Shown here: one piece after another, positions 2,315 to 61,917 of the stretch
Position numbering within the stretch: position 1 is the stretch's first letter
Layout of the letters: each line of letters starts with the position of its first letter
DNA from: an uncultured Leptospira sp.
Lineage (GTDB): Bacteria; Spirochaetota; UBA4802; JAGODF01
Assembly: GCA_964502925.1 (NCBI GenBank)
Contig: CAZCYH010000020.1
Span: 442-64,441, forward strand
Length of the DNA: 64,000 nt
Reading direction: 5' to 3'
Notes under the pieces: generated by a model
Told to the model about the DNA's origin: nothing
Database searches by the model: none
The model's input: the letters and a program-made list of their open reading frames with translations, nothing else
Translations under genes and position numbers: made by a program

Positions 2315-3079
2315 TTATTTCTCTTCGCGCACCAGAATTCTGTAGCTTCCTCCGGTAGTATTATGCCCTTTCATTGCGACGTGAAATCTGCCCTTGGGAA
2401 GGTGCATGCTGATGCCCGATGATGGTTCCGAGCCGGTATTGAAATCATTTCCGATTACTTTGCCCGATTCCATTTTCAGGTCGATGTATGGCGCGAAATT
2501 CGATTGGCCTAGGCGTTTGCCGGTGATGGTATAAAGGCCCTCTTTCTTTACGTCGAAAAGGTACATCTTCATTTCTCCGGATTTCAATGAATCCTTCACC
2601 GCCTGACCGGGAGTGATATCGCTGATGATAATTTCGCCGGCGATGAGTTTGTACGCGCCCGATGAACCGCTATAAGTTCCGACCGTTACGATGTATTTCC
2701 CGGCTTTCAATTACCGCATGATTTTTGCGTTTCTGTTGCCTCCGCCGTCATCATCGCTTTGAACGAGCATACCGTTTGCGTCATACAGCCAGAGAAATGC
2801 GTCGGGTGAAGAGTTGCCGTCTTTTGTGTGGTCGATGCTCACATACGTGTCCTTTTCAATAAACTGGCCGTTGCTGCCTAAACGATCCATGTGCGGTCGT
2901 ATTGGGGTGGCGCCGGTGCACTTGCCGATGAAAGAGATATTTGTTTCCTTTGCGAGCGTAAAAAGATACAGTTTTATTTCATTATCGGCGAGCGCGTCGC
3001 TCAAAGTCTGGTTCAAACCGATGCTTTTAGCTTCAATCGTCCTCACCAACCATTTATAAGGATGTTCCCTTGTGGGCAC
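2315..3079 (-). pseudogene. tandem pre-peptidase C-terminal (PPC)-like domain protein interrupted by an in-frame TAA
   Basis: ORFs 2711..3079 and 2315..2710 are contiguous in the same frame and separated only by a TAA at 2711-2713. Joined, they give two PPC-like repeats (LWLYDANGMLVQSDDDGGGN ... AGKYIVTVGTYSGSSGAYKL ; MYLFDVKKEGLYTITGKR...GSYRILV). The N-terminal 13 codons lie inside intergenic repeat copy A, so the true start is uncertain. Confidence 0.5.
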
Positions 3080-3155
3080 AGTATATGGGTAAAAACCGCT
3101 TTCTTTGATGCTAATTTTAAGGATTAAAGCGGTTTTGAGAGGTGCCCATAATAGT
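3047..3155 (+). repeat. intergenic nested-hairpin repeat, copy A
   Basis: Shares AACCATTT.TAAGGATGTTCCCTTGTGGGCACAGTATAT..AAAACCGCTTTC-loop-GAAAGCGGTTTT.AGAGGTGCCCAT with copies at 5085..5195 and 20717..20838. Confidence 0.75.
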
Positions 3156-3710: not shown

Positions 3711-4976
3711 TTATATGCGGTGATGCTTGTGGTAGTACATCGCCATATCAGCACGGGCGATAAGCGTTTCGATGTCGTCATTTCCCTCGGGGCTTATCGA
3801 AGCACAACCCCAGGACATGCCCAGTTCTGTTTTCAAAATTGCTTCTGAATTAGTTTCTTTGATTGCCTCGGTCAAGCGCTTCCCAATATTTTCCCCGCAT
3901 CCTTCTTTCGCGTTTATCATCAGCACGGCGAATTCATCGCCGCCCCAGCGCGAGATGATGTCGGTGGTGCGAAATGTTTTGCGCAAAATTCCCGAGGCAA
4001 GTATGAGCGCCTTGTCGCCTTCTGGATGTCCAAACTGGTCGTTAATTTTTTTCATATTGTTAAGGTCGATGAAAAAGAGAACAAGATTCTCTTTGTTTCT
4101 TTTTGCCAGACTCATCTGCTGTTCGGCAAGCTTGATAAAACCACGCCGGTTGTAGAGTCCGGTGAGCTGATCCACCATTGATAGCTCGCGCAGGGTGTTT
4201 TCATAGAGGGTGCGCGCGGTGATGTCCTGCACCTGAACAAGATATCCGTAAATGCCGTTGCCATTTGTCCGAAGCGGGGTGATGAGGACGTCCAGGTGAA
4301 TGATGCCGCTTTTTGATGTCTGGTAGAGGTTGAGAGATCGGATCAAACCGAAATCAAACGGCGCTTCATAGCGGACGGTTTCACCGTTTCGCAATTTTTC
4401 TTTGAATTCATCCGAAACATTTGGATCCTCAAATAATTTGAAACCGCGGACTTCATCGGCCGAACTTACGCCGAAAATATCCAGACACGCGCGATTCACA
4501 TCCAGAAGCGAACCATTTTCGTCATACAATTCAATGCCTATCGGAGAGGACTCGTAGATGAGCCGGAATTTCTCCTCGCTTTCAACAAGTGCCTTTTCGA
4601 GGCTATGCCGCTTGAGAGCAGATTCCACATTTATAATGAGCTCGTGCGCGTTCACCGGTTTTGAAAGAAAGCCGTAGCAGTGAGCGTTTTGGAGCCGTGT
4701 GCGAAGCGATGTGTCGGATGAGGCAGTGATGAAAATAACTGGAATGTGCATTTCAGTGCGAAGGCTGTGTTCAAGATCGATGCCGTCGCACGCATCATCA
4801 TCGAGCATAATATCCACTAATGCGATGTCGGGTTTTGTTTCCCGTGCCACGCGTTCGCCGTCCTTGCAATTTGTTGCAATCCCTGTCACAAGGTAGCCTG
4901 CGTCTTCGAGCATCTTCGATAAGATTTGCGCGATAACGCTATCGTCTTCAACGATGAGTACTTTAGCTGGTTTCAT
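3711..4976 (-). CDS. response-regulator receiver - PAS - GGDEF diguanylate cyclase
   Basis: N-terminal REC domain (VLIVEDDSV...DIALVDIMLDD), central PAS domain, and C-terminal GGDEF domain with an intact active site (RWGGDEFAV). Confidence 0.85.
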   Translation of the reverse strand: MKPAKVLIVEDDSVIAQILSKMLEDAGYLVTGIATNCKDGERVARETKPDIALVDIMLDDDACDGIDLEHSLRTEMHIPVIFITASSDTSLRTRLQNAHCYGFLSKPVNAHELIINVESALKRHSLEKALVESEEKFRLIYESSPIGIELYDENGSLLDVNRACLDIFGVSSADEVRGFKLFEDPNVSDEFKEKLRNGETVRYEAPFDFGLIRSLNLYQTSKSGIIHLDVLITPLRTNGNGIYGYLVQVQDITARTLYENTLRELSMVDQLTGLYNRRGFIKLAEQQMSLAKRNKENLVLFFIDLNNMKKINDQFGHPEGDKALILASGILRKTFRTTDIISRWGGDEFAVLMINAKEGCGENIGKRLTEAIKETNSEAILKTELGMSWGCASISPEGNDDIETLIARADMAMYYHKHHRI

Positions 4977-5084
4977 AAGGGCAATTGCGAGATAAAATTG
5001 AAATTGTTAAATAATATATCAAGTCACATCAGAAAATCAATAATATTTTGAGAACATCCCGCTTTTTATTATAAGGGAACTTCT

Positions 5085-5195
5085 AAAAACCATTTTTATG
5101 GATCTTCCCTTTTGGGCACAATACATTAAGTAAAAACCGTTTTCTTTGATGCTAATTTTTAAGGATGAAAGCGGTTTTTAAAGGTGCCATAAAAT
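5085..5195 (+). repeat. intergenic nested-hairpin repeat, copy B
   Basis: GGGAACTTCTAAAAACCATTTTTATGGATCTTCCCTTTTGGGCACAATAC..AAAACCGTTTTC..GAAAGCGGTTTTTAAAGGTGCCAT. The loop sequence is identical to copy A. Confidence 0.75.
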
Positions 5196-5379
5196 TTTTC
5201 ATGACGCCAAAATGAAAAATGCGATGGAAATTGTGCTTTATGGCTTTGGGTTCGCATGTATTTTGTTTTTCAAAATGTACACGGAAAATTGACAAAGCTG
5301 GCAATATGTGTTGCATAATGTCATAGGTGCAGCTTCCGGTAAGATGCCTGTTGCAATTATAGAGGTATTTTTCTTGGTT

Positions 5380-5865
5380 TTAACGGGCGAATTCAGCAGC
5401 CAACAGCGCTGGATCGCTTGGCAATCCCCACCAGATGTGAAACACCGTCGCTTCTTCTATACATTTATCATAAATTGCACAGTTTTTGTAGGGATAAGAA
5501 TCCACTTCTTCGTCATATTCGCCCTTTTCGATGCGCTCTAACAAGCCCGGTAAATATGCAAGCACCGCAATGGCAATCACATGCGAAATCGACCTTCTAT
5601 AAAATCTCCGCATATCATTAAAATAATCATACTCCCTTTCCAGCATTTTCACCTTCACGCGGAATTTTGGTATTGGCATGCCATCTGCGTCGAATCGCTT
5701 CTGGTATTCAATTCTACCATGTTCTCTCTCGTGTTTTGAATGATGCCGCATTGCGTGGCGCATCACCGCGATGATGAGGTCAATCATCGTCCAGCCCGTG
5801 CGCTTCTCGGCGTCTTTAAGGAGCAATAACACCTCTGTTGTCATCATGTAAGTTGTTTTTATCAT
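5380..5865 (-). CDS. 161-aa multi-copy family protein, copy 1 (function unknown; possibly a Leptospira-type paralogous DUF)
   Basis: MIKTTYMMTTEVLLLLKDAEKRTGWTMIDL...HIWWGLPSDPALLAAEFAR. Near-identical paralogs lie at 48124..48609 and 61432..61917, and a truncated copy at 25856..26089. Confidence 0.75.
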   Translation of the reverse strand: MIKTTYMMTTEVLLLLKDAEKRTGWTMIDLIIAVMRHAMRHHSKHEREHGRIEYQKRFDADGMPIPKFRVKVKMLEREYDYFNDMRRFYRRSISHVIAIAVLAYLPGLLERIEKGEYDEEVDSYPYKNCAIYDKCIEEATVFHIWWGLPSDPALLAAEFAR

Positions 5866-6074
5866 GGCACGACCTCCACAAAGTAAAATGGAAATTCTAT
5901 ATGCAGTAAAAACAACAATACAAATGTATAGTGATTATTGCAAGTAAAAATTATAGCAATTCTAAAAAATATCGAATAAACAATAAATCGGGAATAGCGT
6001 TATGTAATTACATATGTAAAGATAATAATTGCTGTTTTTTTTTGGATTCAAGAGGGCTATTGTATAGTGGCTGG

Positions 6075-7067
6075 TCAAATCATTGTTTTTTTCAGGTATT
6101 CTTCCGAAATGCGATAATCCGGCAGTGATATTATTGCTTTTTCTGGTTTATGCTGCACAATTAATTTGTTGTTGTCATCAGGTTTCCCGTAGCGTGCAAT
6201 TGCCGCTGCGATTGTATTCATTGCGTCGCCATCGAGTGTTCCCCGCACAAAGGCGCAGGGCCCTTTAAACTGCGGCTCAAAGAAATAATCGGCTTCGCCT
6301 TTGTATTTCAAAAGCTCATTATACTCTTTTTCATTGCGCGCGATGATGCATTTTGCGCTGCTGCTCAGGCGGAAATGGCGTCCCACGGTGAGAAGATACA
6401 CATCCAGCATTGAATAATCGGGATGATAGTTAAGCAGATCGCGAACGCGCGCTGAGATTTTCACGTCGGTGAAAAGGCACCCCCCCGCCGGCGATTGGTA
6501 TTCCTTGATGCCAAACTGATGGGCAAGTTCCATCTGCCGGAAGCGTCCCCGTCCGGAAATGTCTAAAAGTTTTTCGCGATCGACTATTCCTGCTTTTTCA
6601 GCTTCGGTTGGTTCTAACTTCTTTGCGCACAGCGGGCGCAAAAGTTTTCCTTCAAGCCCGGTTTGCTTTTCTATATGCCGCATCATGTGCCGCATCTGCG
6701 ACATGGGGCGCTGGCCGATAACCTCTCCAGTGGCAACAAATGAAGCGCCTTCTTCACCAAGCGCCTGTGCCGCGTACCTCAGAAAAAAAATCTTGCAGTC
6801 GATGCAGGGGTTCATCCGCTTCCCGTGTCCGTGAGGTGGGTTCTGTACCATCGCCATATAGTCTTTGCCAAGGCGTATGTGTTTGAGAGGAAGGCCGATT
6901 TGTTTTGCAAGTTTGGAAGGCGTGAGCGTTTCGGGATCTGCATCGGGTGCCACAAAGGGCAGAATGAAGTGATAGCCGACTACGTCGATGCCCTGTAGAA
7001 GAAGAAGCTTTCCCGCAAGGAGGCTGTCCAGCCCGCCGGAATACAGCAGAATGCCGCGCCTTTTCAC
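6075..7067 (-). CDS. PP-loop ATP pyrophosphatase, ThiI-like (tRNA sulfurtransferase C-terminal-domain family, no THUMP domain)
   Basis: PP-loop YSGGLDSLLA and a ThiI-like TGEVIGQRPMSQ motif. Conserved Cys present in NPCIDCK. Confidence 0.6.
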   Translation of the reverse strand: MKRRGILLYSGGLDSLLAGKLLLLQGIDVVGYHFILPFVAPDADPETLTPSKLAKQIGLPLKHIRLGKDYMAMVQNPPHGHGKRMNPCIDCKIFFLRYAAQALGEEGASFVATGEVIGQRPMSQMRHMMRHIEKQTGLEGKLLRPLCAKKLEPTEAEKAGIVDREKLLDISGRGRFRQMELAHQFGIKEYQSPAGGCLFTDVKISARVRDLLNYHPDYSMLDVYLLTVGRHFRLSSSAKCIIARNEKEYNELLKYKGEADYFFEPQFKGPCAFVRGTLDGDAMNTIAAAIARYGKPDDNNKLIVQHKPEKAIISLPDYRISEEYLKKTMI

Positions 7068-8317
7068 TCAATCTCCTCGTGATTGATAAGCTGAATGACG
7101 ACCTCTTCTCCCACTTCGAATACTTCCTTTTCGGCGGGAAGGATGATGAGGCAGTTTGCTTCATGCATTGAACGAAGAATTCCCGAACCTTGCGGGCCTG
7201 TCGTCGCAACGGATATCTCTTTCCCTTCGATTGAAAAAAAACCCCGCACAAAGTGCGTCCGCCCTTTTTTCTTTGTGATTTTCTCTCTGAGCGTGGCGCG
7301 TGCTTCCGGTTTTCGGATTTTTCGCGCACCCATGAGGGAAAGAATAGCGGGGCGCACAAACTGAATGAACGATACAAGCGAAGATACGGGATTTCCCGGA
7401 AGGCCGAAAAACAGTTTCTTTGCAACCGATGTGCTCGAGACGCCGAACACGCATGGCTTTCCAGGCTTCATTTTTACTGTCTCAAATATAATGTGCACGC
7501 CGAGTGTGGTAAGAACTTCTGGAATGAAATCGTATTCACCCATGGAAACCCCGCCGGTGGTGATGATAATATCACAGCGGCTTGCTTCTTGAAGAAGGCG
7601 TTCGGTATCTTCTCTGGAATCTCTCGCAATGCCGAGATAATGAGGTGTTCCTCCGTATTTGAGTACCTCGCCGTAAAGCGCGTACGCGTTGCTGTTGCGA
7701 ATATGTCCCGGCAAAAGCTCCGTGCCCGGTTCGGACAATTCATCGCCCGTAGCAATGATTGCGATGTCAGGCTTTTTGAATACTTCAACACGTGGGATGT
7801 TGAGCGAGGCTAAAATTCCCATCACTGCAGGCGTAATGCGTTCACCTCTGCGCAGCACTTTCATTCCACGGCGGATATCTTCTCCCGCGCGGCGGATGTT
7901 CGCGCCAGGCGTTGCAGGGCACAAGAAGCTGACCATGCCGCTCGTTTCAACTGTGTCTTCCACCGGTACTACCGTATCGGCGCCGGAGGGGAGCATAGCA
8001 CCGGTCATGATGCGAATTGCGCTTTCCGATGAAACTTCCGTGCCTCGATCGCCTGCTTTTGCTTCGCCGGAGATGGGAAGCAAAACCGGTTTTTCTTTTG
8101 ATGCATCGCGAATTGCCGAGGCGACCAACGCGTAGCCATCCATTGCGGAATTGTCAAAGGGCGGGATGTCAACATCTGAAATGATGTCATGCGCTATAAA
8201 ACGAAATGCCGCCTCCAGAAGTGGCACGGTTTCGATCTCCATCAAAAAGGACTGTTCGAGCACCAGCGCAACCGCTTCGTCCGGAGAAATCATTGGGGTT
8301 TTGTCTTTTTTTGCCAT
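7064..8317 (-). CDS. moeA: molybdopterin molybdenumtransferase MoeA
   Basis: 417 aa with the MoeA domain order and motifs (PPFDNSAMDGYA...GGVSMGEYD). Overlaps the downstream gene by 4 nt. Confidence 0.85.
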   Translation of the reverse strand: MAKKDKTPMISPDEAVALVLEQSFLMEIETVPLLEAAFRFIAHDIISDVDIPPFDNSAMDGYALVASAIRDASKEKPVLLPISGEAKAGDRGTEVSSESAIRIMTGAMLPSGADTVVPVEDTVETSGMVSFLCPATPGANIRRAGEDIRRGMKVLRRGERITPAVMGILASLNIPRVEVFKKPDIAIIATGDELSEPGTELLPGHIRNSNAYALYGEVLKYGGTPHYLGIARDSREDTERLLQEASRCDIIITTGGVSMGEYDFIPEVLTTLGVHIIFETVKMKPGKPCVFGVSSTSVAKKLFFGLPGNPVSSLVSFIQFVRPAILSLMGARKIRKPEARATLREKITKKKGRTHFVRGFFSIEGKEISVATTGPQGSGILRSMHEANCLIILPAEKEVFEVGEEVVIQLINHEEIE

Positions 8318-8368
8318 GGAGACTGTGTTGTGATGTGTGCCAGGAAATGCAAGAATTTTTCTGAAGTT

Positions 8369-8911
8369 TTAATCTGTATTATACTCATGCAGATTTTCTT
8401 TTAGAAGCGAAGAAATGCGGCGCAGTATTTTTCTCATCTGGAATTCGGAGATCCCAAAATCAGTGGTAATATCTTTAATGTGATGCTTCAGAATGTGATA
8501 TCGGAGATATATTGCGCGCTCATCGGGGTGCAACTTTTCGATGGTGTCGCATAGTGTTGATATCACTTCACCCTCAATATAGATATCCTCCAGGCTTGGG
8601 GTGGGGTATAGATCGGGATCGAGTGTTTCGAAATTCACGTTCAGCACGTTGACGTTTTCAAATTCGGTGCTCCGAAAATAATCTTTCACGAGATTTTTTG
8701 CTGCAGTAATAAGATATCCCTTTGTCCGTTCTCCGTACGGGTCGATTTCTAATCCATTGCGATGTAATTTCAAAAAAAGATCGTGCAGGATTTCTTCAGC
8801 GATATGCGGATTTTGAATCTTTTTCTCGATTATTTTCAGAAGCGTGCTTCCGTAGCGGGTGTAGCATTCCGCAACCCGATTGCCGTTCGATTTTTTATTT
8901 TTGGAGTACAT
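8369..8911 (-). CDS. ECF-type RNA polymerase sigma-70 family factor
   Basis: Sigma region-2-like (YLITAAKNLVKDYFR) and region-4-like (ITTDFGISEFQMRKILRR) segments. Confidence 0.65.
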   Translation of the reverse strand: MYSKNKKSNGNRVAECYTRYGSTLLKIIEKKIQNPHIAEEILHDLFLKLHRNGLEIDPYGERTKGYLITAAKNLVKDYFRSTEFENVNVLNVNFETLDPDLYPTPSLEDIYIEGEVISTLCDTIEKLHPDERAIYLRYHILKHHIKDITTDFGISEFQMRKILRRISSLLKENLHEYNTD

Positions 8912-8941
8912 GGCGAAGAATTACGCTGGCGGTTCCGTCGG

Positions 8942-9208
8942 TTAGTGAATTGCTTCTGAATTATGACGGACCATTTCGGCAGTGGTAGCTGCAGGCACGG
9001 TTTCACCATCGACAGTAACGGTTTCAAGGCGTTCCACATCAAGCCCGAGTTCCGAAGCGGCATCGATATAGAACTGAAGCACATTTACAAGGCGGCGAAC
9101 AGCTTCGTCCTTGCTATTTCCATAGCAGTTCACGTCGAGTTCGGGACAGTTCGCAATGATTTCTTTTTCCGATTCGATTATTCTGACGTGGATTTTCACT
9201 TTTATCAC
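8942..9208 (-). CDS. HicB-like / UPF0150-family antitoxin-like protein (orphan)
   Basis: CPELDVNCYGNSKDEAVRRLVNVLQFYI matches the HicB N-domain pattern (CPEL...G.T.EEA..N..EA...). No HicA partner found nearby. Confidence 0.45.
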   Translation of the reverse strand: MIKVKIHVRIIESEKEIIANCPELDVNCYGNSKDEAVRRLVNVLQFYIDAASELGLDVERLETVTVDGETVPAATTAEMVRHNSEAIH

Positions 9209-9450
9209 CGTTTTTTATGTTTAATTTTGTAATATTATAAAAACGTGAAGGCGGATGCCAGCTCCCGCCGCGGCGATAGGCCGAGGGAAAGGAGAAGGCT
9301 TCGCGGCGTTTTTTCTCTTCCAGAAATATTATCGTCATGTCGAAAAAGCGCCTTGATAGAAAGCGGCTTGATTTTTTAATAAAACCCGAAGAAAAAATTA
9401 TCTGAAAAAAAGTGAACAAATAAAATTTTTTAAAAAGTTGTACTAATTTG

Positions 9451-9481
9451 TTGACAAAAACGGCCTTGCTGATTGTATGGT
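9451..9481 (+). promoter_or_regulatory. putative sigma70-type promoter of the atp operon
   Basis: TTGACA at 9451-9456, then a 17-19 nt spacer to TGTATGGT. Confidence 0.3.
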
Positions 9482-9514
9482 TCCCAAACTTAATGATGAT
9501 CACTCAAAACTCAT

Positions 9515-9772
9515 TTGCACGGAAGAAAAGGTAAAAACGCGATACTCGCATATTCAACCGTCGGTATGCAGTTGGCCCTCTTTCTTGTTCTTTTTACGTA
9601 CGGCGGTTACAGGCTCGATGTGAAATTCGGAACGGCTCCTGTTTTTGTGCTCCTCGGGGCGGTTATTGGGCTGGCAGGAGGTATGTACAATCTGCTGAAG
9701 GGTCTGAAGGAACTTGACAGGTATTTGAAGAAAAGTGATTCGCCGGAAGAGAAGCGGCGTAAATGGCTATAA
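9515..9772 (+). CDS. ATP synthase protein I/AtpZ-like small membrane protein
   Basis: Two predicted TM helices immediately upstream of atpB. TTG start at 9515; an alternative ATG at 9566. Confidence 0.5.
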   Translation: MHGRKGKNAILAYSTVGMQLALFLVLFTYGGYRLDVKFGTAPVFVLLGAVIGLAGGMYNLLKGLKELDRYLKKSDSPEEKRRKWL

Positions 9773-9808
9773 AGGGCTTTGTTCAATCCTAAGAGTGGAG
9801 TTGTGTGA

Positions 9809-10690
9809 GTGATGCTACACATACTGCGAACCGTTACCAGTGTTATTACATCATCGCACGGCGGTGAAGAGTCTGTAAGCGAAGTTGTAATGCACCATCT
9901 TACCGACCATCCGATAGTTGCTTCCGAAAGTTCAAATGTAATCGTCAAGTACATCCATCAGTTGAATACCACGGTTTTCAGCGAAAAGCTTTTTGGTATT
10001 TTCGACATGAGGATTACCCGCTGGGTTCTGATGATGTGGATTGCGGCTTTTCTCTGCCTTATTGTTTTCATTCCTATTGCGCGCAAGATCAAAAAAGCGA
10101 AAATGGGCTCCAGTTCAAAGTGGGTCAATCTCTGGGAAGCCATTATCGGCTTTGTCCACGATGAGATTGTTGAGCCGAACTTCGAGCACCACTATGCAAA
10201 GAAAGCCATGCCATGGTTTTGTACGGTATTTTTCTTCATTCTGTTTTGCAATCTCATGGGCCTCATACCGGGCATGTCAACGGCGACGGGAAATCTTGCC
10301 GTCACTGCGGGCCTTGCCGTGTTTACTCTTCTTGGCATGATTATTGTCGGTACCGTGAAACAGGGGCCGCTGTGGATCGTGACCGGCGTGGTGCCGCATG
10401 GCATTCCGATTGTAATTTTCCCTCTTCTATGGGTGATTGAGATTCTTGGATTGCTTATCAAACCCTTCGCGCTAACCGTTCGTCTTTTTGCGAACATGAC
10501 GGCGGGCCACATTGTTATTATCATCTTCATATATCTCGTTATGATGTTTAAGAGTTATCTTGTCGGAATCGGTTCTGTGACGGGTGCTCTTCTTATTAAT
10601 ATGCTTGAACTCTTGGTGGCGTTCATTCAGGCGTACATTTTTACGGCGCTCTCGGCGATGTTCATCGGATCTTCGATGCACGCGCACTGA
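9809..10690 (+). CDS. atpB: F0F1 ATP synthase subunit a
   Basis: FALTVRLFANMTAGH contains the essential Arg motif. The N-terminus is ~50 aa longer than typical, so the start is uncertain. Confidence 0.85.
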   Translation: MMLHILRTVTSVITSSHGGEESVSEVVMHHLTDHPIVASESSNVIVKYIHQLNTTVFSEKLFGIFDMRITRWVLMMWIAAFLCLIVFIPIARKIKKAKMGSSSKWVNLWEAIIGFVHDEIVEPNFEHHYAKKAMPWFCTVFFFILFCNLMGLIPGMSTATGNLAVTAGLAVFTLLGMIIVGTVKQGPLWIVTGVVPHGIPIVIFPLLWVIEILGLLIKPFALTVRLFANMTAGHIVIIIFIYLVMMFKSYLVGIGSVTGALLINMLELLVAFIQAYIFTALSAMFIGSSMHAH

Positions 10691-10852
10691 TGAATTTGCA
10701 ATAACGAGACGGGCGGCTATGGTAGTTGCCGGTCTCTGGTGGGCATGAAATTAAGTAAAGCCGAATGTGGCGGAGAGGTATCCGACGCGGGCGGTTTTGA
10801 TTAAGCCCATAATGAATTTCAATCACCAATAAATTTTACAGGAGGAATCCAG

Positions 10853-11155
10853 ATGGAAAACGCAATGGGTATGGCTTTCCTTGGAGCTGGTTTTGGCGCT
10901 GGACTTATCGTTTTTGGCGCGGCTCTCGGAATTGGAAGGCTTGCAACCGGAGCTCTTGAGGGGATGGCACGTCAGCCCGAAATGAGCGGTGACCTGCGAA
11001 CTGCAATGATTATCGCCGCTGCTCTTATCGAAGGTTTTACGTTCTTTGCCCTTGTGGTGACCTTTATGCTTGCCACGAAAGAGCCTTCTTCAATGCAGGC
11101 TCCAGCAGCAGCTCCCGCAACTGCGCCTCAGCAAACCGCACCTGCCGGTCATTGA
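10853..11155 (+). CDS. atpE: F0F1 ATP synthase subunit c with a Pro/Ala-rich C-terminal tail
   Basis: Hairpin with GxGxGxG (GAGFGAGLIVFGAALGIG) and the ion-binding Glu in AALIEGFTFFAL. RBS GGAGGA. An extra ~25-aa tail (KEPSSMQAPAAAPATAPQQTAPAGH). Confidence 0.85.
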   Translation: MENAMGMAFLGAGFGAGLIVFGAALGIGRLATGALEGMARQPEMSGDLRTAMIIAAALIEGFTFFALVVTFMLATKEPSSMQAPAAAPATAPQQTAPAGH

Positions 11156-11232
11156 TGAGTTAACGTTGCGCGCTGGGTTGATTGTTTTTCCGGTTTTAGC
11201 AGTATCAACATTCTTTCTAACGGGTAAATCAG

Positions 11233-11742
11233 ATGGATGTATTAAAAGAAGGTTTATTGAAAGTTGATCCGGGTTTGTTTCTGTGGACGGTCATTACGTT
11301 CGCGGTTCTGTTCTTGATCCTCTGGAAAGCGGCGTGGAAGCCGATCGTTGACGCGCTCGATGCCAGAGCGGAGAAAGTGCGCTCCGATATCGAAAATGCG
11401 GAAATGATGAGGATCGAAGCGGAAAAACAGCTCGCTCAGCACAAGGAAATGATGGACAAGGCCAATGCCGAGGTAGCAGCGATCATCGCAGAAGGGAAAG
11501 CCGACGCGGAGCGCGTCCGAAGCGGCATCATCGAGAAGGCCAATGCTGAGGCGAAAGAGCTCAGCGAAAAGGTCAAAAAGGAAATCGAGATGGCGAAAGA
11601 CAAGGCACTTGCGGAAATTCAGTCGGAAGTTGTCGCCCTGTCTACCGAGATAGCGGCCAAAATTATTGCAAAGAATTTGAATCCAGAAGACCAGAAAAAG
11701 CTGGTCGAAGATGCAATATCCAAAATAGGGACAGTTCAGTAA
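11233..11742 (+). CDS. atpF: F0F1 ATP synthase subunit b
   Basis: N-terminal TM helix followed by a long charged coiled coil. Position in operon fits subunit b. Confidence 0.8.
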   Translation: MDVLKEGLLKVDPGLFLWTVITFAVLFLILWKAAWKPIVDALDARAEKVRSDIENAEMMRIEAEKQLAQHKEMMDKANAEVAAIIAEGKADAERVRSGIIEKANAEAKELSEKVKKEIEMAKDKALAEIQSEVVALSTEIAAKIIAKNLNPEDQKKLVEDAISKIGTVQ

Positions 11743-11768
11743 ACCTGGGCTGTCCCCGTTTTGTTTTT
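11733..11768 (+). terminator. putative intra-operon attenuator hairpin between atpF and atpH
   Basis: GGGACAG..15 nt..CTGTCCC followed by CGTTTTGTTTTT. Confidence 0.3.
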
Positions 11769-11805
11769 ATCGCGGTGAAATTATCTTATTAAAAGGGTTA
11801 ACACT

Positions 11806-13879
<2,074 letters not shown>

Positions 13880-19807: not shown

Positions 19808-20620
19808 ATGATGGCTGTTCCAGGGGTTTGCGTGCTTACGGGATATGGCATTAATTGCGATGATGAAACACGCTTTGCGTTTGAGGCTGCCGGCGCTGAG
19901 GCGCGCATCATTCACATAAACGATATTATTGAAAATCGGAAGATGTTGAATGATTTCCAGATTTTCGTTTTTCCCGGCGGCTTTTCGTACGGGGATGATA
20001 CCGGCAGCGGAAAGGCGCTCGCAAACAGAATAATGAACAATCTGAGCGATGAATTCGAGCAATTTCTGGAGCGCGATACACTCATGCTCGGAATCTGCAA
20101 TGGCTTTCAGGTAATGGTAAATCTTGGAATTGTCCCTGCGCTTGAAAAAAAGATTGGAAAGCCGGAAGCTGCGCTCATGCACAATCAATCGTCGCGCTAT
20201 ATCTGCCGCTGGGTGGACCTTGAGGTGGAAGGGGGAAATCCATCGGTGTTTTTGCGCGGCATACGGAGATTGCACATACCGGTTGCGCACGGGGAAGGAA
20301 ATTTCTATGCCCCTGAAGCCGTGCTTCATGCGCTTGAAGAAAAAAAGCTCATAACATTGCGCTATGCAAAACCCGAGGGCGGCAGGGCGAATGGCGAATA
20401 CCCGTTTAATCCCAACGGCTCGATGCGCGATATTGCTGCAATCTGCGATGCATCGGGAAGGCGAATGGGAATGATGCCGCATCCTGAGCGCAACATCTTC
20501 TTTACCCACCGCGACGACTGGACGTATGTACGCGAAATTTACAAAAGACAGGGAAAGAAGTTGCCGGAAGAAGGGGAAGGGCTGGCGATTTTTAAAAATG
20601 CGGTGGGGTATTATGCATAG
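19808..20620 (+). CDS. purQ: phosphoribosylformylglycinamidine synthase glutaminase subunit PurQ
   Basis: Class-I glutamine amidotransferase triad (GICNGFQ...HGEG). Confidence 0.85.
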   Translation: MMAVPGVCVLTGYGINCDDETRFAFEAAGAEARIIHINDIIENRKMLNDFQIFVFPGGFSYGDDTGSGKALANRIMNNLSDEFEQFLERDTLMLGICNGFQVMVNLGIVPALEKKIGKPEAALMHNQSSRYICRWVDLEVEGGNPSVFLRGIRRLHIPVAHGEGNFYAPEAVLHALEEKKLITLRYAKPEGGRANGEYPFNPNGSMRDIAAICDASGRRMGMMPHPERNIFFTHRDDWTYVREIYKRQGKKLPEEGEGLAIFKNAVGYYA

Positions 20621-20716
20621 CATATATTTTACTTATAATATCAACTGAATACAAGAAAAAAAATCGAAAAACCTTGACGCCTTCAATGTCTATCGGAAAT
20701 ATTGATGCATAGTATC

Positions 20717-20838
20717 AAGGAACTTCAAAAAACTATAGTTAAGGATGTTTCCTTGTGGGCACAATATATAGAATAAAACCGCTTTCTTTTTTCGCTTTGT
20801 ACTATGAAGAAAGCGGTTTTTAGAGGTGCCCATCAATA
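20717..20838 (+). repeat. intergenic nested-hairpin repeat, copy C
   Basis: GGAACTTCAAAAAACTATAGTTAAGGATGTTTCCTTGTGGGCACAATATAT..AAAACCGCTTTC..GAAAGCGGTTTTTAGAGGTGCCCAT. It ends 15 nt before the yeeE-like start. Confidence 0.75.
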
Positions 20839-20853
20839 TTCAGGAGTAAAAAT

Positions 20854-21933
20854 ATGAACAACATATTTGCGTCAAGATGGGGTATCGTTTTAACTGGTGT
20901 TTTCATTGGCGCGGTGGCAATTGCTCTCCAGATGCTTGGCAACCCACCGAATATGGGCATCTGTGTGGCATGTTTTGAGCGAGACGTTGCGGGTTCGCTT
21001 GGTCTTCACCGTGCGGCGGTGGTGCAGTACATGCGTCCGGAAATAATCGGCTTTGTGTTTGGATCATTTTTAGTAGCGCTTGCAACCAGAGAATTCAAAC
21101 CCAGGGGCGGTTCCTCTACCATCGTGAGGTTCTTTCTTGGCGTGTTTGCGATGATTGGCGCGCTGGTTTTTCTCGGATGCCCCTGGCGTGCGCTGCTGCG
21201 TCTCGCAGGAGGCGATTTAAATGCGCTTTTAGGTATTGCCGGCCTCGCGACGGGTATCCTCATAGGAGTTTTCTTCTTGAAAAATGGGTACAGCCTGGGC
21301 AGATCATATGCGATGAAGCAATCTGCCGGCTGGATTTTTCCGGCGGTGATGGTTGGTTTTTTTCTGCTCCTTGTTTTCAATGTGTCGGCTAACCCTGAAA
21401 ATGCGCTCTTCTTCAGTGCGAGCGGTCCCGGCTCGATGCATGCGAACATCTGGATAAGTCTTGCAGCAGGAATTGCTGTCGGTGCAGTGGCGCAGAGAAG
21501 CCGTTTCTGTACCATGGGTGCGCTACGCGATGTGCTTCTGGCAAAAGATTTTCATCTCATAAGCGGTGTGGCGGCGCTTCTTGTCACGGCCACGGTTTTG
21601 AATCTCATCATCGGCAAGTTCAATCCCGGTTTCGAAAGCCAGCCAATTGCTCATGCGAATCATTTCTGGAATTTTGCGGGAATGGTGCTGGCGGGACTTG
21701 CTTTTGCGCTGGCCGGTGGGTGCCCGGGAAGGCAGCTTTTTCTCTCCGGCGAAGGCGATAGCGATGCGGCGGTTTTTGTACTCGGTATGATTGTGGGTGC
21801 GGGCATTTCGCATAATTTCGCTGCTGCGAGTTCTCCTGCGGGCCCAGGGGCGTTTGGACCTGCCGCGGTCATTATTGGGCTTATTTTTTGCGGGGTTGTT
21901 GGACTTGTGATGCGAGTAAAGATGAATGCGTGA
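20854..21933 (+). CDS. YeeE/YedE-family inner-membrane transporter (thiosulfate/sulfur- or selenium-related)
   Basis: Two conserved Cys motifs (GICVACF and RFCTMGA) in a polytopic membrane protein. Confidence 0.8.
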   Translation: MNNIFASRWGIVLTGVFIGAVAIALQMLGNPPNMGICVACFERDVAGSLGLHRAAVVQYMRPEIIGFVFGSFLVALATREFKPRGGSSTIVRFFLGVFAMIGALVFLGCPWRALLRLAGGDLNALLGIAGLATGILIGVFFLKNGYSLGRSYAMKQSAGWIFPAVMVGFFLLLVFNVSANPENALFFSASGPGSMHANIWISLAAGIAVGAVAQRSRFCTMGALRDVLLAKDFHLISGVAALLVTATVLNLIIGKFNPGFESQPIAHANHFWNFAGMVLAGLAFALAGGCPGRQLFLSGEGDSDAAVFVLGMIVGAGISHNFAAASSPAGPGAFGPAAVIIGLIFCGVVGLVMRVKMNA

Positions 21934-21961
21934 TGATACTAACCGAAGGAGGAGCTTTTCT

Positions 21962-22168
21962 ATGATAAAAATAGATGCGCGTGGGCTTTCATGCCCCCAG
22001 CCGGTGGTGATGACGCAAAAGATCATTGGTGAAGGTGCAACTGAATTTGAAGTCCTGGTCAATACCGTGGTTTCAAAAGAAAACGTGCTCCGCTGCTTAT
22101 CTAAAAACGGCTATAAGGCAGATGTGCGGGAAGAGGGGGATGATTTCATCATTGCCGCCACACGGTAA
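21962..22168 (+). CDS. TusA-like sulfurtransferase
   Basis: MIKIDARGLSCPQPV carries the CPxP active-site motif. Trimmed from ORF 21926..22168. Confidence 0.8.
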   Translation: MIKIDARGLSCPQPVVMTQKIIGEGATEFEVLVNTVVSKENVLRCLSKNGYKADVREEGDDFIIAATR

Positions 22169-23333
22169 TACTATATATTTTGATAATGCCGCCACCTCAT
22201 TTCCAAAACCTGAAAAGGTTGTGGAGGGGGTGGCGGATTTCTTACATCGCGCTGCTGGAAATCCTGGACGGTCGGCTCACCGGTTGTCGGTTGAAGCGGG
22301 TGAAGTTGTTTTTGAAGCTCGTGAAAAGCTCGCCGCTCTTTTCGGTATCAAAAACCCCATGCGCGTGATTATGTGTCATAATGCCACCGAGGCGCTGAAT
22401 CTTGCCATCCTGGGCCTGCTTGCGGGAGGAGGACATGCGATTACAACATCAATGGAACACAATAGCGTTTCCCGTCCTTTAAAAGAGCTTGAAAGAAGAA
22501 ATCATATATCACTGACGATTGTGCCGGCATCACCGGAAGGAGCTGTTAAACCGGATGATATCGCTGCTGCTTTTCAACGCGAAACAAAACTCGTGGTGAT
22601 AAATCATGCTTCGAATGTCTTTGGCGTGACACAGCCTGTTGCAGAAATCGGCGCACTTTGTCGAAATGCGAGGCTACCGCTTCTTGTGGATGCGTCGCAA
22701 AGTGCCGGTGTCGTTCAAATCGATATGAAGCGCGATGCGATTGACCTTCTGGCTTTTACCGGCCATAAAGCGCTGTACGGGCCGACCGGGACCGGCGGGC
22801 TCGTCATTTCCGATGATTTTGATTACACACGGATACGCCCTTTGAAATTCGGGGGGACAGGAAGTTTTTCGGATAAAACGTATCAGCCGAATTTTCTGCC
22901 GGACATGTTTGAAAGCGGCACGTTGAACGCAGCGGGAATTGCTGGTCTGGTGGAGGGGATGAAATTTCTTGAAAAGCGGGGGGGAGTGTGCTCGGCGCGC
23001 GACCATAAAAAAATATTAGTTTCGCTTTTTTATGAAGAAGCACTTGAAAAAATAAATAACATAAAGTTTTATGTGAAACCGGACATGTGTGAAACCGGTA
23101 CCGTTTCATTTAACATTGAGGGGATGACGCCGTCGTTTGTGGCGCAAAAGCTTTTGGATGAATATGGCATCATGACACGTGCGGGTCTTCATTGTGCACC
23201 GCTTGCGCATCAGACGATGGGGACCTTTCCTGATGGCACCGTGCGGTTTAGCTTCGGTGTGTTTAATACCGAAGAAGAAGTGCGGTATGCCGTACGGGCA
23301 CTCGCGGAGATGGATTCCACCGCTCGAAAATAG
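22140..23333 (+). CDS. cysteine desulfurase / selenocysteine lyase-like class-V aminotransferase
   Basis: IYFDNAATS N-terminus, PLP Lys in FTGHKALYGPTG, and an active-site Cys region (GLHCAP). Overlaps tusA-like by 29 nt; trimmed from ORF 22026. Confidence 0.85.
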   Translation: MISSLPPHGNTIYFDNAATSFPKPEKVVEGVADFLHRAAGNPGRSAHRLSVEAGEVVFEAREKLAALFGIKNPMRVIMCHNATEALNLAILGLLAGGGHAITTSMEHNSVSRPLKELERRNHISLTIVPASPEGAVKPDDIAAAFQRETKLVVINHASNVFGVTQPVAEIGALCRNARLPLLVDASQSAGVVQIDMKRDAIDLLAFTGHKALYGPTGTGGLVISDDFDYTRIRPLKFGGTGSFSDKTYQPNFLPDMFESGTLNAAGIAGLVEGMKFLEKRGGVCSARDHKKILVSLFYEEALEKINNIKFYVKPDMCETGTVSFNIEGMTPSFVAQKLLDEYGIMTRAGLHCAPLAHQTMGTFPDGTVRFSFGVFNTEEEVRYAVRALAEMDSTARK

Positions 23334-23355
23334 AATATTTTGGGTTTGCGTTGTT

Positions 23356-23577
23356 ATGCAGAATAAATCTGTCATTCTTTACCATTCGAATAATCATGCC
23401 ATATGGACCGGTAAAATTTTAAAAAAGCGCGGCATTTACCATAAGATGATTCCAGTGCCGCGGCATTTGAGTTCCGATTGCGGATATTGTGTGGAAATAC
23501 TCTCGTCAGATGTTCCGGATATTGAAATTTTATTGAAAGAATTCGGCGTGGAATACGAGAGAGTTGAAGAACTTTAG
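23356..23577 (+). CDS. DUF3343-like small protein (putative S/Se-carrier accessory)
   Basis: VILYHSNNHAIWTGKILKKRGIYHKMIPVPRHLSSDCGYCVEI matches the DUF3343 pattern (H.A...EK.L...GI...LIPVPR.ISS.CG). Trimmed from ORF 23179. Confidence 0.55.
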   Translation: MQNKSVILYHSNNHAIWTGKILKKRGIYHKMIPVPRHLSSDCGYCVEILSSDVPDIEILLKEFGVEYERVEEL

Positions 23578-23778
23578 AAATATAAGCTTGAAAAATAGGA
23601 TGATATATGAGGGAACTCCTAAAAGCCATGATAATGATATTCCCTTGTAAGCAAAAAAGGATTCAAGTCGAAAGGTGTTTCCTGACTATAAAGCAAAGAA
23701 AAACGCTTGAAAAATTCTACAATATGTATCACATCTTGACGCAAGAACATTTTTATATATTGTGCTTCGGATAAACCG

Positions 23779-25855: not shown

Positions 25856-26089
25856 TTAACGAGCGAATTCAGCTGCGAAGAGTGAGGGGTCGCTGGGTAA
25901 TCCCCACCAGATGTGAAACACGGTTGCTTCTTCTATACATTTATTGTAAATTGCATAGCTTTTGCAGGCATTAGAATCCACTTCCTCGTCATAGGCACCG
26001 CTTTCAATGCGCTCCACCAGTCCCGGCAAATAGGTCAGCACCGCAATCGCGATCACATGCGAAATCGACCTTCTAAAAAACCGTCGCAT
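25856..26089 (-). pseudogene. truncated copy (C-terminal 77 aa) of the 161-aa multi-copy family
   Basis: MRRFFRRSISHVIAIAVLTYLPGLVERIESGAYDEEVD...WWGLPSDPSLFAAEFAR aligns to residues ~85-161 of the full copies. The N-terminal half and the family promoter are absent. Confidence 0.7.
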
Positions 26090-26209
26090 ATCATTAAAAA
26101 AATCATATAAAATGAAAAAAAATTTCTATCACCTCTTGACGATTGGACGGTTTGTATGTTTATTTATAATATATACCTATGGTCTATATTATAAATCGAG
26201 GAGGCAGGC

Positions 26210-30139: not shown

Positions 30140-30366
30140 AATGAATAATATTCTCGCGATTGACCATAAATTTTGCAATCAACGTTTAATTAGAATTTAG
30201 CACAAAAAAGAAGAAAATCAAAAACGAGAATATGGAATCGCGAAAATTAAGTGTTTATGATTGTACATTTTTTTAATGCCGATTGGACGAGGGCGGAACT
30301 AAGTAATCCTTCAAAATATAGGAGGAACCTCTGAAAACCCAATTCCAAATTAAAATGAAAAAAAAA

Positions 30367-48123: not shown

Positions 48124-48609
48124 TTAACGGACGAACTCAGCGGCTAATAGCGCTGGGTCGCTGGGCAACCCCCACCAGATGTGAAAAACAGTCGCTTCTT
48201 CTATACATTTATCGTAAATTGCACAGCTTTTGTAGGGATAAGAATCCACTTCCTCGTCGTACGCACCGCTTTCAATGCGCTCCACGAGTGCTGGCAAATA
48301 CTCCATCACCGCGATCGCAATCACATGCGAAATCGACCTTCTAAAAAACCTCCGCATATCGTTAAAATAATCATATTCTCTTTCGAGGATTTTAATTTTC
48401 ACGCGGAATTTTTTAATTGGCATTCCATCTTTATCAAACCGGTTCTGGTATGCAATTCTTCCGTGCTCCCTTTCGTACTTTGCGTGATGCCGCATTGCAT
48501 AACGCATTACTGCTATTATTAAATCAATCATCGTCCATCCCGTACGCTTTTCGGCGTCTTTGAGTAGCAATAACACCTCCTGGGTCATCATGTAGGTTGT
48601 TTTGATCAT
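48124..48609 (-). CDS. 161-aa multi-copy family protein, copy 3
   Basis: MIKTTYMMTQEVLLLLKDAEKRTGWTMIDL... with the conserved upstream promoter TTGAAA-N17-TATTGT. Trimmed from ORF 48124..48711. Confidence 0.75.
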   Translation of the reverse strand: MIKTTYMMTQEVLLLLKDAEKRTGWTMIDLIIAVMRYAMRHHAKYEREHGRIAYQNRFDKDGMPIKKFRVKIKILEREYDYFNDMRRFFRRSISHVIAIAVMEYLPALVERIESGAYDEEVDSYPYKSCAIYDKCIEEATVFHIWWGLPSDPALLAAEFVR

Positions 48610-61431: not shown

Positions 61432-61917
61432 TTAACGGGCAAATTCTGCGGCTAACAGCGCCGGATCGCTCGGTAATCCCCACCAGATGTGAAACACCGT
61501 CGCTTCTTCTATACATTTATCGTAAATTGCACAGCTTTTGTAGGGATAAGAATCCACTTCCTCGTCATACTCACCACTTTCAATGCGCTCTACCAATTCA
61601 GGGAGATATGCCAGCACCGCAATCGCAATTACATGCGAAATCGACCGCCTGAAAAACCTCCGCATATCATTGAAATAATCGTATTCCCGTTGATGAAATT
61701 TCACTTTCACCCGAACTTTTGGTATCGGCATGCCCTCTGCGTCGAAGCGCTTCTGGTATGCAATTCTTCCATGCTCCCTTTCATATTTTGCGTGATGCCG
61801 CATTGCATAGCGCATGACCGCGACGACAAGATCAATCATTGTCCATCCGGTGCGCTTCTCTGCGTCTTTGAGCAGCAGCAATACTTCGTGCGTCATCATG
61901 TACGTGGTTTTTATCAT
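61432..61917 (-). CDS. 161-aa multi-copy family protein, copy 4
   Basis: MIKTTYMMTHEVLLLLKDAEKRTGWTMIDL...AEFAR. About 90% nucleotide identity to copies 1 and 3, and the same upstream promoter motif. Confidence 0.75.
   Translation of the reverse strand: MIKTTYMMTHEVLLLLKDAEKRTGWTMIDLVVAVMRYAMRHHAKYEREHGRIAYQKRFDAEGMPIPKVRVKVKFHQREYDYFNDMRRFFRRSISHVIAIAVLAYLPELVERIESGEYDEEVDSYPYKSCAIYDKCIEEATVFHIWWGLPSDPALLAAEFAR

Follow-up and report, generated by a model that had tools for sequence, protein, structure and literature searches.

The window examined here, a 64,000-nucleotide stretch of contig CAZCYH010000020.1 from an uncultured Leptospira sp., carries a short intergenic repeat that an earlier note, made from the sequence alone, had described as a nested hairpin that could be a transposable element of the miniature inverted-repeat kind (MITE), a terminator/attenuator family or a structured RNA. 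We are confident that the repeat is a MITE of about 114 bp, non-coding and non-autonomous, which derives from an insertion sequence (IS) of the IS5 family. Its ends, the duplications that flank it, its copy number, its insertion polymorphism between two genomes and the link of its ends to IS5-family transposases were all observed. The repeat is a decaying relic of mobile DNA and not a regulatory RNA.

Three full copies (A, B and C), a half copy (remnant D) and a solo end (E) were located in the window, all on the plus strand and near the positions that the earlier note had given. Copies A, B and C align with a mean column identity of 80%, and a repeat finder recovered them as families D2, D3 and D5. 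Searches with three sub-motifs, allowing up to 3 mismatches, gave 3 matches each, exactly at A, B and C, with 0.00-0.11 expected. The family also occurs in a sister metagenome-assembled genome (MAG), CAKZSV01, labelled 'uncultured bacterium N1_Bin_METABAT__35_1', from which L032 and other stretches cited below were taken. A family profile built from 43 copies was then run on the window with nhmmer, and the repeat pieces and associated sites are as follows.

Copy A, 3033-3147, plus strand: full copy of loop subfamily 1; nhmmer E=7e-32 over 3045-3147, model positions 11-113.
Copy B, 5075-5188, plus strand: full copy of loop subfamily 1; nhmmer E=1e-29.
Copy C, 20718-20831, plus strand: full copy of loop subfamily 2; nhmmer E=9e-30 (20719-20831).
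Remnant D, 23611-23654, plus strand: half copy; nhmmer E=1.2e-4, model positions 1-45.
Solo end E, 30323-30339, plus strand: 17-mer AGGAACCTCTGAAAACC with 2 mismatches; profile E=6.6, not significant.
Empty target site, 5983-5986, no strand: a single ATAA in the window, filled in the sister genome at L032 6033-6146.
Promoter-like site, 20674-20703, plus strand: TTGACG-18-AATATT, a consensus match only, just 5' of copy C.

The copies measure 109-115 bp, hold no consistent open reading frame (ORF), and end in imperfect 17-bp terminal inverted repeats (TIRs). The left end (IRL) reads GGGAACTTCTAAAAACC and the right end, when reverse-complemented (IRR), reads GGGCACCTCTAAAAACC, with agreement at 15 of the 17 positions. 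Such paired ends were found in the window and in 71 further copies from other loci, and neither they nor the 4-bp flanking duplication described below had appeared in the earlier note. The window holds 6 end-like 17-mers with up to 2 mismatches, where chance would give 0.04. What that note had reported, an outer TGGGCAC/GTGCCCA repeat enclosing a 12-bp inner stem, is present and folds stably on the plus strand (z -3.8 to -4.3), and the structure follows from the architecture of the element itself, as read from its sequence. The IRL tip GGGAAC pairs with an internal GTTCCC to give the left hairpin. Further in, GGGCAC-AATATATAGGT-AAAAACCGCTTTC resembles the IRR in inverted form; the true IRR reads GGGCAC-CTCT-AAAAACCGCTTTC when reverse-complemented, so that the right 74 bp form a palindrome of two right ends. 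The 'nested hairpin' is thus produced by the pairing of the IRL tip together with the internal inverted right end.

Every piece in the window differs from the consensus of the sister genome. Copy A (102/115 identical) has an intact right end at 3131-3147 with 1 mismatch and an ATAA directly after it at 3148-3151, while its left terminal 17 nt are degenerate or lost and homology is clear only from 3045; nearly all its differences lie in this left end. Copy B (104/115) keeps its left TIR GGGAACTTCTAAAAACC at 5075-5091, and its right TIR carries 2 changes and has lost the final C. Copy C has a perfect right TIR and 3 mismatches in the left one, and is identical to the subfamily 1 consensus at 96 of 116 positions. 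Remnant D retains no more than the left TIR and the first hairpin (38/47 matches to the left part of the consensus), and piece E, weak on its own, is probably the last trace of another copy. As had been noted before, the loop is the same in A and B and different in C; the two variants represent two subfamilies, both of which also occur in CAKZSV01. With 83-90% identity to the sister consensus, damaged ends, one half copy and one solo end, the window copies are, to judge from their sequences, old and partly disabled.

A genome-wide search for copy number had been proposed in the earlier note, and it revealed around 40 near-identical copies in the sister genome. For this we scanned 185,579 reference genomes with the right-end pattern AAAGCGGTTTTNANAGGTGCC. 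The scan returned 83 stretches, 37 of them from CAKZSV01, and the DNA used here from the MITE-bearing genomes consists of 8-kb pieces of short-read MAGs, about 650 kb in total. CAKZSV01 holds 38 full-length copies of 113-114 bp, one truncated copy and a 52-bp derivative (L042 1119-1170) that arose when the DNA between two TAAGGATG direct repeats was deleted. One copy each was found in the MAGs labelled 'Spirochaetes bacterium SKW14' and 'Leptospira biflexa'. An approximate gene call places 40 of 42 copies between genes, and they show no preferred orientation to the two neighbours (8/8/7/7 over the four possible configurations). The five same-orientation copies stressed in the earlier note therefore follow no rule, and within the window alone their arrangement has p ~0.06.

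Target-site duplications (TSDs), another check that had been suggested, were found at copies B and C and in the other genomes. Copy B is flanked by ATAA at 5071-5074 and 5189-5192, and copy C by ATCA at 20714-20717 and 20832-20835. We counted identical flanking 4-mers at 42 full-length copies of the window family and at 29 copies of a related Clostridia/Ruminococcus family (157, 224 and 283 bp), with the next 4-mers outward as the control. Identical flanks were present in 32/42 copies of the window family (ATAA about 31 times, ATCA 4 times) and in 26/29 of the related family, compared with 1/42 and 1/29 in the shifted controls. As ATAA dominates in the window family, the related family provides the stronger test; its duplicated 4-mers are of 11 kinds (TATA, TAAA, TTAT, TTTA, TAAT, TTAA, TTCA, ATAA, TCAA, TTTT and TATT). 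A TA-only duplication of the IS630/mariner type was ruled out, as all four flank positions co-vary between left and right. In CAKZSV01 insertion favours targets with an A-rich 5' side (AAAAW-ATAA), and four copies there begin right after a TAA stop codon because the target ATAA itself contains TAA.

The boundaries of the element were fixed by comparison with the stretch L032 of CAKZSV01, which is syntenic with positions 4012-12014 of the window at 85-92% identity. The site of copy B is empty in L032, where it reads ...AAAAAAATAATTTTTCAT..., and the reverse is seen at 5983-5986 of the window, where a single ATAA stands in AAACAATAAATCGGG. At the matching position L032 reads AAACAATAA[GGGAAC...GGTGCCC]ATAAATTGAG, which amounts to the 114-bp element followed by another ATAA. 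Each filled in one genome and empty in the other, in opposite directions, the two sites establish both the element ends and the 4-bp duplication, and they show that the element has moved since the two genomes diverged.

A different account of the same repeat is that of an intrinsic, possibly bidirectional, terminator or attenuator family kept by selection at gene boundaries and not spread by transposition, and we consider this very unlikely. The inner stem AAAACCGCTTTC/GAAAGCGGTTTT is preceded by an A-run and followed by T(T), so that a hairpin with a U-run can be read from either strand; copy B is found past a gene's 3' end and copy C within a 5' leader, and four sister-genome copies directly follow a TAA stop. 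However, the last of these positions follow from the ATAA target, and the TIRs, TSDs and insertion polymorphism are left unexplained by termination. Of the 12 bp in the stem, 5 are G-C pairs, and UUUU(U) comes next, yet a simple terminator scan called no copy because the loops are 21-27 nt long and the U-run pairs with the upstream A-run. Moreover, MITE families that have only their ends in common with the window element possess unrelated interiors: across all such families the ends are conserved and the hairpin interior is not. It is possible that single copies of the MITE have terminator activity as a secondary effect, in which case transcripts would be expected to end at GCGGUUUUU.

The derivation of the MITE from the IS5 family is based on its ends. 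The 17-nt ends are shared at 16-17 of 17 positions with three autonomous elements from public viral-contig records, and only the first 17-18 nt are in common. The complete elements are listed below.

L084/L106, 1296 bp: IRL GGGAACCTCTAAAAACC, IRR GGGCACCTCTAAAAACC, flanked by AGAG/AGAG.
L105, 1279 bp: same ends, flanked by TTAA/TTAA.
L090/L104, 1256 bp, 38% GC: same ends, flanked by TTAA/TACA.

The L084 transposase scored 273 bits against the NCBIfam model NF033581 'IS5 family transposase', whose cut-off is 140 bits, and also matched Pfam DDE_Tnp_1 and DUF772. The L090 protein (40% identical) and the L098/L105 protein (77% identical) are linked to it by similarity only. The left-A/right-C asymmetry at position 4 of the window element's ends recurs in L084, whose transposase gene runs from the GGGAAC end to the GGGCAC end, so that the window copies, read on the plus strand, run from IRL to IRR. 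By the ISfinder convention the IS5 subgroup typically makes a 4-bp duplication, and this was found in the MITE copies as well as in two of the three complete autonomous elements, with perfect AGAG/AGAG and TTAA/TTAA flanks. The autonomous elements (L084, L105 and L090) thus resemble the window element in their 17-bp ends and 4-bp duplications (AGAG, TTAA), and differ in that they encode a DDE transposase of 345-367 aa where the window element encodes nothing, and in that their hosts have 38-65% GC. A profile search for relatives of the transposase in viral contigs returned the elements already found and one partial one: at L108 1406-1422 (IMGVR_UViG_2634166357_000001), a fragment of an IS5-type transposase stands at the contig end, preceded by GGGAACTTCTCAAAACC. 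This end has T at position 7, as does the left end of the window element, and L108 is possibly a closer relative of the missing parent IS.

From these features a route of spread can be proposed. A full-length IS would supply a DDE transposase in trans, and this enzyme would bind the two ends, cut the element out and place it in A/T-rich sites with a strong preference for AAAAW-ATAA, where a staggered cut would duplicate 4 bp. The partner IS would measure 1.2-1.3 kb, be bounded by GGGAACTTCTAAAAACC ... GGTTTTTAGAGGTGCCC and encode a DDE_Tnp_1/DUF772 protein. Mobilisation in trans by such a transposase is the mode of spread that we infer for this lineage.

Several observations weigh against the IS5 derivation. 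The sister-genome loci were picked by the right-end pattern, which by itself accounts for part of the conservation seen there. In the 185,579 reference genomes, the exact 21-nt right-end pattern was never found beside a transposase and occurred only in MITEs and as chance matches. An IS5-family transposase gene was found neither in the 64-kb window nor in the ~650 kb of MITE loci by tblastn with the L084 query. The flanks of one complete autonomous copy out of three are imperfect (TTAA/TACA). Lastly, IS5 itself targets YTAR, whereas the targets here are ATAA/ATCA with an A-rich 5' flank (TWWW in the Clostridia relatives), and the element was accordingly grouped with the IS5 family and not with IS5 itself. 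The absence of the transposase says little, since short-read MAGs often lose multicopy ISs and MAG contigs break near MITEs. Several contigs of the Clostridia/Ruminococcus MAGs (L035, L044, L045, L070, L083 and others) start or stop within ~90 nt of a MITE, which suggests that MITE repeats break short-read assemblies and that the same effect would hide a full-length partner IS.

The missing partner transposase in the same-genome DNA searched and the departure from YTAR could also be accommodated if the repeat were a MITE of another transposase family (IS701, ISH3 or IS1380, an IS1182/ISNCY relative, or a hairpin of the REP/IS200-IS605 type), and the L084 transposase does give sub-threshold matches to the IS1182 and ISNCY models. 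We regard this as extremely unlikely. Both scores are below the cut-offs of their models, while the same protein passes NF033581; the 17-nt ends match three autonomous elements, including the position-4 A/C asymmetry in L084; and IS200/IS605 and REP elements make neither TIRs nor TSDs, both of which the window element has.

Almost no credence can be given to a structured cis-regulatory RNA, such as a riboswitch or leader, for yedE and other genes, a reading that is largely refuted although copy C ends 22 nt 5' of the yedE start with an aptamer-plus-terminator-like layout and the folds are stable. No Rfam family matched the whole window at the gathering threshold, so the comparison with riboswitch classes named in the earlier note brought up none, and over copy C at E<=10 the best match had E=0.45 and 20 bits, compared with a gathering threshold of 47. 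The covariation analysis, also suggested there, did not bear out selection for the fold: in the alignment of 43 copies (41 distinct sequences), the 24 stem pairs were 97.7% paired, changes on both sides occurred in 0/24 and covariation equalled the shuffled mean, in a test of low power. What keeps the stems alike is the young age of the copies and not selection on pairing. No such end was present anywhere in the 80 yedE loci of a metagenome scan (61-72% identity, the closest 72%; 385 kb), and the element is therefore not a conserved yedE leader, although no relative was near enough to help date copy C; in addition, copy B faces away from both adjacent genes, and orientation to genes is random in the sister genome. 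Among the three options originally offered, the MITE thus stood, on its TIRs, TSDs, ~40 sister copies, reciprocal sites and IS5-type ends, and the attenuator and the structured RNA were not supported.

MITEs derived from the IS5 family are a known kind, including BrickBuilt and MITE239/464 of Porphyromonas gingivalis and ATR of Neisseria with ISNme1 (PMC4596501). The window element resembles BrickBuilt and ATR in that they are non-coding, have TIRs that equal or closely match the ends of IS5-family ISs, make short TSDs and reach tens of copies per genome, and also in that families with common ends have unrelated interiors and the same ends recur across phyla (PMC4596501). It differs in its end sequence, the TIR being GAGACCTTTGCA in BrickBuilt-type MITEs and GGGMACYTCTAAAAACC here (PMC4596501). 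The window element is also smaller (114 bp), is without internal tandem repeats, and has a TSD that is uniformly 4 bp and A/T-rich with a strong ATAA preference; its partner IS was not found in the same-genome DNA searched. REP/BIME and IS200/IS605 palindromic elements are likewise short, intergenic, hairpin-forming and multicopy, but they lack TIRs and TSDs and are moved by HUH (Y1) enzymes, in contrast to an element with TIRs and 4-bp TSDs. Correia elements of Neisseria are a further parallel, being ~100-150 bp long, intergenic and of high copy number, with TIRs and with hairpins formed on transcription, and terminator and promoter effects have been demonstrated for them. They differ in a TA duplication and in TIRs of 26 bp, and no link between them and an IS5 transposase of this type is known. 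By analogy, copies B and C could have Correia-like side effects on adjacent genes. A full-text literature search with the end sequence CTCTAAAAACC gave only unrelated matches, and these limited searches brought up no description of the window family; the literature on MITEs in spirochaetes was uninformative.

The right end of the window element is widespread. The related G+C-rich family (157, 224 and 283 bp; for example L009 5171-5327 and L075 2530-2753) was found in the gut Clostridia/Ruminococcus MAGs CAMVNQ01, CACZGM01, CAMVBT01, CAMOKN01 and JAEEJW01 (L004-L083), with more than 25 copies in CAMVNQ01, whose 4-bp duplications come in 11 different sequences. It has in common with the window element the left end, an identical 22-bp right end AAAGCGGTTTTTAGAGGTGCCC and an internal GGCACAAT motif. 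A 159-bp MITE with the same ends lies at L026 2414-2572 in the Spirochaetes MAG GWE1_32_154, another 159-bp family with these ends occurs in several viral contigs, and a 44-bp mini-element at L085 3061-3104 consists of little beyond the two ends, with TTAT duplicated. The 22-bp right end is thus common to MITE families in different phyla, and it was seen on no autonomous element. Searched by BLAST against annotated plasmids, the Clostridia-type MITE gave only chance matches (25-39 nt, E>=2) and no named IS. An end of the IS200/IS605/TnpB type had been considered for the shared right end and was dropped once the TIRs and TSDs were clear. One more far-reaching proposal is that the families with the 22-bp right end (Spirochaete-like, gut Clostridia/Ruminococcus, the other Spirochaetes MAG and the 44-bp minis) form a single cross-phylum MITE lineage that spreads alone and is cross-mobilised by distantly matching IS5 transposases, with single copies co-opted, copy C as a leader or terminator and other copies in preferential association with the 161-aa gene family described below. 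We think this unlikely.

The gene contexts described in the earlier note hold for all three full copies: C precedes the yedE ATG, A lies 5' of a gene for a cyclic nucleoside monophosphate (cNMP)-binding protein, and B lies beyond the stop of a 161-aa gene, at a distance of 191 nt. Copy C is situated between a purQ-like gene (GATase_5, 19808-20620) and a four-gene cluster on the plus strand (20854-23577) that comprises a yedE-like gene (Sulf_transp), TusA, a class-V aminotransferase and a Se/S-carrier (PF11823), a sulfur/selenium-handling set. From the end of the copy to the yedE ATG at 20854 there are 22 nt, in which an AGGAG ribosome-binding site lies at 20841-20845. If the promoter-like site at 20674-20703 is used, the whole of copy C may be transcribed as the yedE 5' leader. 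Since the copy sits between this candidate promoter and the ribosome-binding site, it could affect expression of the cluster, and a polar or attenuating effect is conceivable from this arrangement. Side effects of the MITE on neighbouring genes would then include its hairpin and T-run acting as a terminator and the presence of copy C in the yedE leader.

The 161-aa gene next to copy B belongs to a family on the minus strand with full members at 5380-5865, 48127-48609 and 61435-61917 and a partial one at 25859-26107. The family had no Pfam, NCBIfam or PHROG match, and it is also present in L032, L050, L054, L071, L036, L048 and L023. In the 8-kb MITE loci of the sister genome, 6 of 8 members lie within 200 bp of a MITE, on either side and in either orientation, which is far above chance, and a 40%-identical homologue lies 519 bp from a MITE in a different MAG. 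This adjacency may come from a shared A/T-rich target context or from the family residing in mobile or variable regions. A larger element with the 161-aa gene as cargo was rejected, as the family's genes have no additional ends on either side.

These results serve annotation above all: the repeat is best masked as mobile DNA and not pursued as a riboswitch, small RNA or terminator family. It is also evidence of a broadly spread IS5 subgroup, with ends GGGMACYTCTAAAAACC and A/T-rich targets of 4 bp, from which MITEs have arisen repeatedly in different phyla. The ~40 near-identical copies of the sister genome, set against the decayed copies of the window, mark recent genome dynamics in an uncultured lineage, and they provide insertion markers at the strain level. 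Short ORFs that start inside the repeat are artefacts, as in the case of GTG 3079 of ORF 2711-3079. This ORF and ORF 2315-2710, both on the minus strand and neither with a Pfam match, share one frame with a TAA between them, and the sole start codon of the upstream part (GTG 3079) lies inside copy A, whose left end is destroyed. The pair 2315-3079 looks like a pseudogene that was cut short by the insertion or by a deletion next to it.

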